DNA of 20,000 nt from Sphingomonadaceae bacterium. Its GTDB lineage: Bacteria; Chloroflexota; UBA6077. The stretch is from positions 55,254 through 75,253 of the forward strand of contig JBLNDL010000050.1 in NCBI GenBank assembly GCA_050261575.1, in the 5' to 3' direction. This document shows, piece after piece, positions 7,723 to 10,700 of the stretch; within the stretch, counting starts at the first letter, position 1; each line of letters begins with the position of its first letter. Made by a program: the position numbers.

Positions 7723-10700
7723 TAACGGCTTTAAGTAACGAGTGACGAGTCATGAGTGATGAGTATCGTGGAAAGGTACTCATGACTCTTCACTCATGAC
7801 TCATCACTGATCTATGGAGGACTCGTGGAGGCACTGGAGGCGCTTGGCATCAACCTAACGAGCCTGGCGTTGCACACCTTCAACTTCCTGCTGCTGGTGG
7901 CGCTGCTGACCAAGTTCCTCTACCGGCCCGTGACTCGCCTGCTGGACGAGCGTTCCGCTCGCATCAAGGAGAGCATGGAGCAGGCGGAGGCGGTCAAGGA
8001 GCAGCTCGCTCGCGCCGCGGAGGAGACCAGGCTCCAACTGGAGGCTGCCCGAAAGGAAGGCCAGGCCATCGTGGACCAGGCGAACCAGATCGCGGAGCGG
8101 GTGAAGGCTCAGGCCAGGCAGGAGGCACAGGCCGAGGCCGAGAGGATCGTTGCCAAGGCTAGAACGCAACTGGAGTTGGAGCGGGAGCAGGTCATCGTCG
8201 AGCTTCGACGCGAGATGGCCGACCTGGTGGTATCCGCCACCGGCAAGATCATCGGAGAGTCGCTCGACGATCGAGCTCAGCGCAAGCTGATCGAGGGTTT
8301 TCTGCAGGGAAACGGACAGAAGCTGAACGACTAATCGAGTGATGGGTGATCAGCATGGCTCCTCGACTCACAACTCATCACTCGTTGCCGAGGAGATAGG
8401 TTGCCCGCAGTAAGATCCGGCATCGCCAAGAGGTACGCAGAGGCGGTCTTCGAGATCGCCAAGTCCAAGGATAGCTTCGACGAGTGGGCGCGGGACCTCG
8501 CGGACATCGCCGAGGCGCAGCGAAACCCGCAGATAGCCACGGTGGTGGCAGCCCCGACCATCGGCCTCTCCACCAAGGAGGCCGTCATCGCCCGGTGCCT
8601 GGCCGACATCAGCCCGGAGGCCAGCAACCTGGTGAAGCTGCTGCTGCGCAGGGGTCGGTTCGCCCTGGCGCCGCAGATAGCCGCCCACTACCGCAAGCTG
8701 GTGAACGACCATCGCGGCATAGCCACGGCGGAGGTGACCTCCGCCGTGCCCCTGAGCGCCGCGGAACTGGACGCCGTGGCCGGCCGGCTCTCCGCCATGA
8801 CCGGACGTCGGGTGGTGGTGGAGCCGTGCGTCGACCCGTCGATACTCGGCGGGATCGTCGCGCGCATCGGCGACCAACTGATCGACGCGAGTGTGAGGGG
8901 CCGGTTGGAGGCACTGAAGCGGCGCCTCTCGCAGGCCTAAGCAGGTATCTCTAGTTCACGTCGACCTCTCTTGCGGAAAACGTGTACTCTATCTAGAGAC
9001 ACCTGCTTAGATCGCAGTAACGGGTAACGAGTGATGAGTAGTGAGTGATGAGTGATGAGGTAACCCACTCACAACTCATTACTCATCACTCTTGACTCAT
9101 CACTCGCCACTAGGGGGTAAGATGGCAGTTCGCGCGGACGAGATCAGCTCGATCCTGAGACAGCAGATAGAGCAGTTCCAGGAGGTGGTGACCTCCGTCA
9201 ACGTGGGCACCGTGGTAGAGGTGGGCGACGGGATCGCCCGCATCCACGGCCTATCCGGGGCCATGGCCAGCGAGCTGCTGGAGTTCCCCAACGGGATCAT
9301 GGGGCTGGCGCTCAACCTGGAAGAGGAGAGCGTGGGAGCAGTGATCCTCGGCCCCTTCACCAGCATCAAGGAAGGCGATCAGGTTCGAGCTACGGGTCGC
9401 ATAATGGAGGTCCCGGTGGGACCTGAGCTGGTGGGCAGGGTGGTGAACGCCCTTGGCCAGCCGATCGACGGCAAAGGGCCGATCAACACCAAGAAGACCC
9501 GCCCAGTCGAGCGGATCGCCCCGGGCGTCGTGCTGCGAGAGCCGGTGGACACCCCGGTCCAGACCGGCATCAAGGCCATCGACTCCCTGATCCCTATCGG
9601 TCGCGGGCAGCGCGAGTTGATCATCGGCGACCGGCAGACCGGCAAGACGGCGATCGCCATAGACACCATCATCAACCAGCGCAAGGGCGACATGGTGTGC
9701 ATCTACGTCGCCATCGGCCAGAAGCAGTCGGCTGTCGCACAGGTAGTGGCAACGCTGGAGGCGTACGGCGCCATGGACCACACCATCGTGGTGGTGGCCG
9801 CTGCCTCCGACCCAGCGCCCCTCCAGTACATCGCCCCCTACGCCGGCTGCGCGATGGGCGAGGAGCTGATGGAGCAGGGGCAGGACGTCTTGGTGGTGTA
9901 CGACGACCTCTCCAAGCACGCCTGGGCCTACCGACAGGTTTCCCTCCTGCTGCGCCGCCCCCCCGGCCGCGAAGCATACCCCGGCGACGTCTTCTACCTC
10001 CACTCCAGACTGCTGGAGCGGGCGGTGAAGCTGAACCGGGAGCACGGCGGCGGGTCGCTCACGGCGTTGCCCATCATCGAGACCCAGGCCAACGACGTCT
10101 CGGCATACATCCCAACCAACGTGATCTCCATCACCGACGGGCAGATCTACCTGGAGCCCGACCTCTTCTACGCCGGTGTCCGGCCCGCCCTCAACGTGGG
10201 CATCTCCGTGTCCCGCGTGGGGGGTGCGGCCCAGACCAAGGCTATGAAGCAGGTGGCCGGAAGGCTGAAGGGCGACCTCGCCCAATTCCGTGAGCTGCAG
10301 GCGTTCGCCCAGTTCGGCTCCGACCTGGATAAGGTGACCAAGGCCCAGATCGACCGCGGCATGCGCATCACCGAGGTGCTCAAGCAGCCGCAGTACGTGC
10401 CTGTGCCGATGGAGAAGCAGGTGATGAGCCTGTACGCCGTGACGAACGGCTTCCTGGACGACGTTCCGGTGGAGAAGGTCGGCGCCTGGGAGGCGGGCTT
10501 CCTGCAGTTCATGGACTCCGCCCACCCCGAGATCGGCGAGACGATCGCCCGTGAGAAGGCGATGAGCCAAGAGACCATCGAGGCGCTGCGGGCGGCAATC
10601 GGGGAGTACAAGCGGACGAGCAGCTACTGAGTCCCCTCTCCCAAAGGGAGAGGGAGAAGATGCACCTCTCCCTTTGGGAGAGGGAAGAACCGAAACAGGG

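Follow-up and report, generated by a model that had tools for sequence, protein, structure and literature searches.

The heptamer hairpins that fill operon spacers of the source genome (G000) are the arms of a gene cassette, a cause that the first-pass annotation of this DNA had overlooked. The cassette consists of four to five heptamers, a gene of about 120 amino acids belonging to the four-helix-bundle family TIGR02436/PF05635 (Avd fold; FHB hereafter), and four to five reverse-complemented heptamers, and it stands between the stop codon of one operon gene and the start codon of the next. The arrays of G000 and the FHB cassettes almost certainly belong to the same element family, and the hairpins probably represent the gene-less, non-autonomous form of this small selfish cassette.

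Heptamer hairpins in the atp operon

The window, a stretch of 20,000 nucleotides (G000, contig C50, positions 55254-75253; GC 65%), contains atpBEFHAGDC, murA, and mreB, and the relatives of its atpF are mostly from Chloroflexota. Positions 7726-7824 are the spacer between atpE and atpF. The relevant features are listed below in window coordinates.

7498..7725, + strand: atpE, whose stop codon lies just 5' of the hairpin
7734..7764, + strand: 5' arm in the atpE-atpF spacer, about 4.4 TGATGAG-type units
7778..7812, + strand: 3' arm in the atpE-atpF spacer, about 5 CTCATCA-type units (reverse complement), pairing with the 5' arm
7816..7820, + strand: ribosome site of atpF (GGAGG), which the centroid fold leaves outside the stem; kept in family relatives
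7825..8334, + strand: atpF
8337..8389, + strand: degenerate TGATGAG-type hairpin between atpF and atpH, under the threshold of the foreign-7-mer scan described below
9016..9111, + strand: TGATGAG-type hairpin between atpH and atpA, with arms at about 9016-9059 and about 9066-9111
11668..11714, + strand: TGAGGAC-type element between atpG and atpD, with a weak 5' arm and a 3' arm at 11691-11714
16048..16083, + strand: TGAGGAC-type hairpin directly past the mreB stop codon

The atpE-atpF spacer folds at -43.1 kcal/mol (z = -4.6), with none of 200 shuffles equally good, and the atpH-atpA hairpin reaches z = -6.9. The first-pass annotation had described a run followed by its reverse complement just 5' of the next ribosome site. 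Both the form and the placement held, the 3' arm at 7778-7812 stopping shortly before the GGAGG at 7816-7820. Its proposal that families replace one another at a given spacer was reproduced as well: between atpE and atpF, the TGATGAG hairpin of G000 is replaced by a GCTGATA-type hairpin in G001, G003, and G004, and G002 has no hairpin. Between atpH and atpA, TGATGAG is present in both G000 and its relative G001, as previously noted, and TGAGTTC was further found in G003. More distant genomes carry additional heptamer families in their atp spacers. Sequencing runs containing the atp region were mostly soil metagenomes, with a single RNA run (share 0.08).

Other repeats were seen in the same spacers. 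A palindromic MITE, about 70 nt long and flanked by CTAA/TTAG-like sequence, lies at window positions 8941-9010 and 19689-19759; it often adjoins heptamer arms or stands between them, and about 74 genomic copies are estimated because the 148 BLAST matches of at least 55 nt cover both strands. Three other palindromic spacer repeats, at 7335-7424, 10634-10684, and 17192-17265 (6, 7, and 12 plus-strand matches in the genome), look like CGTC-type, CCCTCTCCC-type, and GTAG-type repeats, which we take to be linked to GIY-YIG, DUF559, and RAYT genes. At other loci, hairpins of degenerate units of about 8-9 nt, possibly a parallel system and presumably linked to GxxExxY genes, occupy the atpE-atpF spacer of L023 and the atpF-atpH spacers of L002 and L066. 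The atpE-atpF spacers of Dehalococcoidia (L031-L059) contain a small hydrophobic ORF of about 35 codons in many genomes, and locus L063 ends, a few kilobases downstream of an atp operon, in a partial FHB gene with a GTGGTCA-type 5' arm.

Heptamer arrays across the genome

Our own gene calling on G000 gave 3,263 genes and 2,252 spacers of at least 30 nt. Strong lag-7 runs were found in 55 of these spacers, compared with 1 to 4 in five dinucleotide shuffles and 4 to 13 for other periods, close to the 59 versus 1 to 4 counted earlier. Using unit lists picked from the data, we found arrays in 146 spacers (TGAGTCC in 47, TGAGGAC in 31, TGATGAG in 35, and TATCAGC in 42, overlaps being counted twice), 120 of them co-oriented and 22 two-armed with a constant arm order; three-unit runs also occurred inside 20 of the 3,263 called genes. 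The first-pass annotation, with 106 of 134 spacers co-oriented, had itself cautioned that its units were chosen from the data. This caveat is answered by a noncircular scan, in which 7-mers learned solely from foreign cassette arms were applied to the 2,252 spacers. It marked 116 of them (71 by protein clade A2, 45 by A3, and 1 by A4), compared with 3 to 5 in three shuffles.

The bias toward co-oriented genes persisted in this set (97 of 116 array spacers versus 1,462 of 2,136 others; odds ratio 2.35, P = 0.0004). All two-armed arrays had the 5' arm before the 3' arm, which is the cassette order (53:0), and both the units and their polarity are common to cassettes and G000 arrays. The upstream stop codon was overlapped by 16 of 47 A2 5' arms versus only 1 of 14 A3 arms. 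The reported enrichment in respiratory, ATP synthase, and ribosomal operons was also borne out: 9 of 41 internal junctions of energy or ribosomal operons, defined with E. coli proteins, carried an array versus 80 of 1,235 others (odds ratio 4.1, P = 0.0014), an effect that may be partly operon-internal because the control group includes non-operon spacers. The 53 hairpin loops, 1 to 324 nt in length, had no common sequence (best pair score 15), and whole hairpins are therefore not copied in the manner of a MITE.

The FHB gene cassette

FHB genes often stand amid heptamer repeats. Matches over the HMM cut-off were present in 22 of 41 related genomes (45 matches; this tally and that of 39 genomes below include the unpublished G037, which has no arrays and no gene). 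Among 30 of the 45 matches inspected by eye, 25 had both arms, 2 had one, and 3 had none, with the run starting near the stop of the upstream gene and the reverse-complement run finishing near the next start. A larger sample was collected by protein alone, comprising 240 loci (the 80 top matches to each of three clade alignments) and one viral match, and it was reduced to 234 loci from three protein clades by removing 2 duplicates and 5 loci with short flanks.

Lag-7 runs were found upstream of 190 and downstream of 200 of the 234 genes, compared with 0 to 13 for other periods and with 8 and 3 of 203 in control windows 600-800 nt away. Both arms were present at 170 loci, with a modal length of 4-5 units, and were inverted copies within 1 mismatch at 133 of these, versus 7.5% of cross pairs; an inverted pairing score of at least 13 was reached at 83% of two-armed loci, versus 14% for direct and 8% for cross pairing. 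The arms co-varied even within each clade (matched versus cross pairs, 58% versus 12%, 25% versus 4%, and 47% versus 1%). Same-strand ORFs lie close to the arms: 128 of the 170 cassettes have one ending no more than 40 nt ahead of the 5' arm, and 121 have one starting no more than 40 nt beyond the 3' arm, although this test is noisy because the opposite-strand counts are 72 and 30. Reverse-polarity units occurred in 9 of 220 cases. We found no transposase between the arms of full cassettes, FHB being the single gene there.

The FHB monomer was predicted as four helices (pLDDT 97). Across the aligned FHB proteins, Q30, R33, S37, N41, and E44 (alignment numbering) do not vary. The model superimposes on 2GSC, the structure of XCC0516, with a TM score of 0.97 (2GSC matches the HMM at E = 4e-35), and on Avd (4DWL) with a TM score of 0.84 at an identity of only 11%. 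An ESM Atlas search returned solely PF05635 clusters. Both the HMM cut-off and the four-helix fold place the genes of the relatives in the family, and G000 holds a broken 3' half only.

A few FHB loci depart from this architecture. A divergent clade without heptamer arms, possibly domesticated, was seen at L090, L101, and L467 (G009, G018, and G014), two of them among sugar-transferase-like genes, and the viral contigs had one distant, armless FHB. In the cassettes L086, L278, and L192 the arms are nested, the gene being flanked on one side or both by an entire small hairpin. A fluoride riboswitch lies near one FHB locus (L252:1825-1899).

The unit follows the protein clade

Judged from sequence, the heptamer unit tracks the FHB clade, not the host, across the 24 named phyla represented by 220 FHB genes with a unit. 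TGAGTCC, TGAGGAC, or TGATGAG was found within 1 mismatch in 66 of 74 clade A2 genes, and TATCAGC was found in 26 of 70 clade A3 genes (47 of 70 with four TCAGC references); the G000 families were matched in 4 of 76 clade A4 genes. The first-pass annotation had described three interchangeable families. Its units stand, but they form two protein-defined groups, TGAGTCC/TGAGGAC/TGATGAG and GCTGATA/TATCAGC, which are two among many heptamer families, and they are interchangeable with respect to sites but not to proteins, since each unit pairs with an FHB clade.

Unit similarity climbed with protein identity, from 0.9% at 30-40% identity to 41% at 70-80%, whereas four-fold sites across the same range were at chance (0.27-0.28 versus 0.25-0.26), indicating that the units persist despite saturation. 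A quick tree of the short FHB proteins required 26 unit-label changes; in 200 shuffles the number never fell below 85, or below 78 with shuffling confined to phyla. This count overstates independence because related rows share labels. The same tree required 93 changes of phylum (shuffled mean, 136). The clade-unit split was repeated inside Acidobacteriota, Chloroflexota, Planctomycetota, and Pseudomonadota. It also extended to paralogues within single genomes: in four genomes (23 distinct genes of 30 matches), the paralogues were 21-59% identical, included no recent duplicates, and mostly had their own unit.

Array abundance tended to follow the cognate gene. Across 39 genomes of the order, TGAG arrays had a median of 47.6 matches/Mb in the 7 genomes with an A2 gene versus 0.5 in the 32 without. 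For TCAGC arrays, the values were 32 versus 1.7 matches/Mb with and without an A3 gene (6 versus 33 genomes; P = 0.03), a weaker comparison, and the pattern overlaps TGAGTGC. Kin are not independent, and the genomes are drafts. The A4 controls showed nothing. Many arrays without a cognate gene were found in 8 of the 39 genomes, including G000. An array-first search found FHB within about 700 nt of 0 of 125 TAACTGA loci and 0 of 61 viral TGATGAG loci; its power for TAACTGA is low if there is about one gene per 50-200 arrays, because only 63 of the 125 loci span at least 1100 nt.

Patchy insertion and loss of the gene

Insertion is patchy. Among 67 pairs of FHB genes at least 78% identical, 43 share both neighbors and 16 have different neighbors on both sides, 6 of these across phyla. 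At one junction of the Nostoc group, viewed by eye in the best 30 of 81 genomes, we saw 3 full cassettes and 3 loci with the same arms but without the gene; other heptamer families occupied 19 loci and another gene 4, and 1 locus was truncated. At one junction of the Nitrospira group, viewed likewise in the best 30 of 74 genomes, 4 had a full cassette, 8 had an empty hairpin belonging to another family, 5 had weaker forms, and 13 were bare. Copy number at single junctions steps by 7 nt. In a comparison of two Nitrospira-group loci (L404/L430), one unit stands at the stop codon of the bare site, and about 6 nt surrounding the start codon seem to be repeated at the filled site; this one case is possibly a target duplication.

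Gene loss leaves the arms behind. The three gene-less Nostoc loci retain the arms and scraps of the interior, and a similar remnant exists in G000. Profile searches of this genome (PF05635/TIGR02436) found no intact FHB, and breakage at arrays is an unlikely cause, because 1 of 206 contig ends carries an array. A DNA profile of the A2 gene, arms excluded, had a sole significant match at C20:3580-3717 (E = 8e-7 genome-wide and 5e-11 among spacers), where the 3' half of a frame-broken FHB gene remains; it belongs to clade A2, as predicted from its TGAGTCC arms. The TGAGTCC run starts at the pyrC stop, and the reverse run lies ahead of carA. The A3 and A4 DNA profiles found nothing significant in G000. 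Only DNA profiles detected the remnant: protein-level searches of the genome were not significant (best E = 0.026 by tblastn and 1.7 by HMM), and its pairwise DNA alignment with the G003 gene scored 32 versus a shuffle maximum of 36. The same junction holds an intact A2 cassette in G003 and is short, with neither gene nor array, in 26 of the 28 genomes examined (2 of 30 loci were dropped at contig ends). At the G000 counterparts of the relatives' other FHB junctions (gyrB-gyrA-like, uvrB-uvrA-like, and others), we found no heptamer hairpin; of the 25 cassette junctions also present in G000, none has an array in that genome.

On this evidence, each hairpin could be read as the scar of a full cassette that was transferred in, integrated through short-homology recombination, and subsequently shed its gene, with no action in trans. 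We regard this as unlikely. The pyrC-carA remnant, the Nostoc loci (3 of 30) with arms and scraps, and the unrelated loops of G000 would all agree with it, but there is just 1 remnant in 116 arrays, and about one gene per family stands against hundreds of matches per genome. The site spectra differ as well: just 3 of 234 full cassettes, versus 9 of 116 G000 arrays, adjoin energy or ribosomal genes.

Proposed mechanism and remaining alternatives

For gene-less hairpins derived from FHB cassettes, we propose the following course. The arms would pair in the mRNA and loop out the insert at little cost, since the stop codon upstream would stay close to the ribosome site downstream. The FHB pentamer, having the Avd fold, would bind its own heptamer RNA. 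About one gene per family would then seed tens to hundreds of arrays in trans, as RAYT does for REPs, probably through a transcript and a host enzyme, a route that would bias the arrays to strongly transcribed operons, and slippage would alter the copy number. The arrays of G000 would now be orphans, the intact FHB genes of this genome having been lost. The conserved unit points to sequence-specific RNA recognition, and the pairing arms point to tolerance of insertion; that many arrays stand against about one gene, together with the differing site spectra, argues for spread in trans. We consider it likely that the FHB protein recognizes its own unit, whereas active spread in trans is an evenly balanced proposition.

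TRAP is an RNA-binding regulator, and by analogy FHB might regulate its own mRNA and tune translation or decay of housekeeping operons via selected arrays. MacGregor proposed a role of this kind for TAACTGA. Such a regulon is rather improbable: arrays switch family and vanish among close relatives, 116 are kept in G000 without an intact gene, and the gene itself is patchy (22 of 41 genomes) and decaying. What it would account for is the energy and ribosomal enrichment, the 3' arms finishing shortly 5' of the ribosome site, the strong conservation of the unit, and the match of a modal arm of 4-5 units to a five-chain protein.

Protein-independent simple repeats, generated by slippage at a 7-nt polymerase footprint with template switching, on which FHB genes merely land, are highly improbable. 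The clade-unit pairing in the three clades sampled largely refutes them, as slippage cannot explain why one unit goes with one protein clade in many phyla, why paralogues within a genome differ in unit, or why the arm order is constant, even though copy number shifts in 7-nt steps, the array-first search was negative, and the heptamer excess has been put down to slippage (Mrazek 2007, as cited in the available text of PMC4679880). Intrinsic terminators or ordinary host mRNA-stabilizing stems have a comparably slight chance of accounting for the arrays, because, despite the stable folds (z = -4.6 and -6.9) and a plausible secondary role in decay, as a barrier or as a site for RNase III, the enzyme that cuts the Coxiella element (PMC4990558), 0 of 4 terminator-like sites (stem plus U run; 3.3 expected) fell on an array, the window had no Rfam match, and arrays were under-represented between convergent genes (5 of 312, P = 0.001).

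Reading the hairpins as gene-less progeny of FHB cassettes links two questions, namely, why 7-nt units dominate the long simple repeats of bacteria in unrelated phyla and what role the common FHB family plays. It also names protein-unit pairs that are directly testable for binding. A broader formulation, which we hold tentatively and place a little below even, is a class of transposase-free mobile elements in which an Avd-like pentamer would read a family-specific 7-nt RNA code and drive insertion or templated growth of hairpin arms where, in transcribed operons, the stop of one gene meets the start of the next. Each set of heptamer repeats known from cyanobacteria, Xanthomonas, Beggiatoa, or one of many further phyla would be the non-autonomous progeny of one FHB clade, and the FHB-unit pairs would constitute a natural library of orthogonal RNA-binding specificities. 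If spread is active, this would be a mobile element that enters essential operons harmlessly and lacks any recognized transposase or nuclease, and it would bear on the use of heptamer repeats, e.g., the trnL P6b classes, as typing or phylogenetic markers.

Comparison with known systems

The hairpins resemble MITEs in being short, gene-less, and numerous, with inverted ends, but a MITE was rejected because the 53 loops share no interior and full cassettes have no transposase between their arms. Avd of diversity-generating retroelements is described, in the available portions of the sources (bioRxiv 2023.10.23.563531; PMC10053308; PDB 4DWL and 8UB7), as a pentamer binding the RNA of its own element. 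FHB shares its fold, but identity is low, and the cassettes carry a single gene; a diversity-generating retroelement is ruled out in G000, where a search for reverse transcriptase gave no PF00078 match.

REP/REPIN sequences depend on RAYT, a HUH (Y1) transposase with one gene per repeat family, flanked by its own inverted repeats and accompanied by many gene-less hairpins. The heptamer elements resemble this in pattern, with about one cognate gene per family, flanked by its own inverted repeats, and many gene-less hairpins. The gene-less copies may likewise depend on the cognate gene, with the reservation that 8 of 39 draft genomes have many arrays but no such gene and kin are non-independent. 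They differ in that the partner is an all-helical Avd-fold protein rather than HUH, the unit is a tandem 7-mer rather than a palindrome, and the loops are not shared.

Heptamer repeats of cyanobacteria are known as STRR. Tandem 7-nt units enriched in intergenic DNA were found here as well, and Nostoc FHB genes are flanked by such units, one by a GGGGATT-type arm. The published repeats, as far as the available parts of the papers describe them, include TAACTGA of Beggiatoaceae, with 7-nt repeats in unrelated phyla and "no mechanism evident" (PMC4679880), the intergenic heptamers GGGAATC of Xanthomonas and GGGGA(T/C)T of Nostoc (PMC4692102), and the two classes of heptamer hairpins in P6b of the trnL intron (PMC3488679). 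They share with our arrays the 7-nt unit, the spacers of co-oriented genes, the proximity to stops and starts, and often the inverted pairs; no cognate gene is named for them in those parts of PMC4679880, PMC4692102, and PMC3488679. TAACTGA is one base off a rotation of GCTGATA and constitutes the 3' arm of cassettes L227 and L245, although its arrays are mostly one-armed (opposite arm upstream in 8 of 125), whereas 53 of the 116 G000 arrays are two-armed. At the Xanthomonas bccP locus, four GGGAATC-type units lie 6 nt past bccP and overlap the start of XCC0516, with no inverted partner listed in the portion available (PMC4692102); XCC0516 is the FHB protein of PDB 2GSC.

The closest published case is the S23p intervening sequence in the 23S rRNA of Coxiella burnetii. 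A literature search covering few subscription journals found, beyond it, no paper tying FHB genes to intergenic heptamer arrays. The available text of PMC4990558 describes an FHB-family ORF within terminal inverted repeats, 2-3 tandem heptamers of variable copy number ahead of the ORF, horizontal acquisition, decay of the ORF, and cleavage by RNase III, which cuts the element out of the rRNA. A location in 23S rRNA was rejected for the present elements, the window hairpins lying between atp genes and 19 candidate loci containing no rRNA. In contrast to the Coxiella element, the cassettes occupy mRNA operon junctions in 24 phyla, both of their arms are heptameric with clade-specific units, and they are accompanied by a large gene-less population. 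The parts were known separately; that they combine into a widespread cassette system in which units are specific to clades is well supported.
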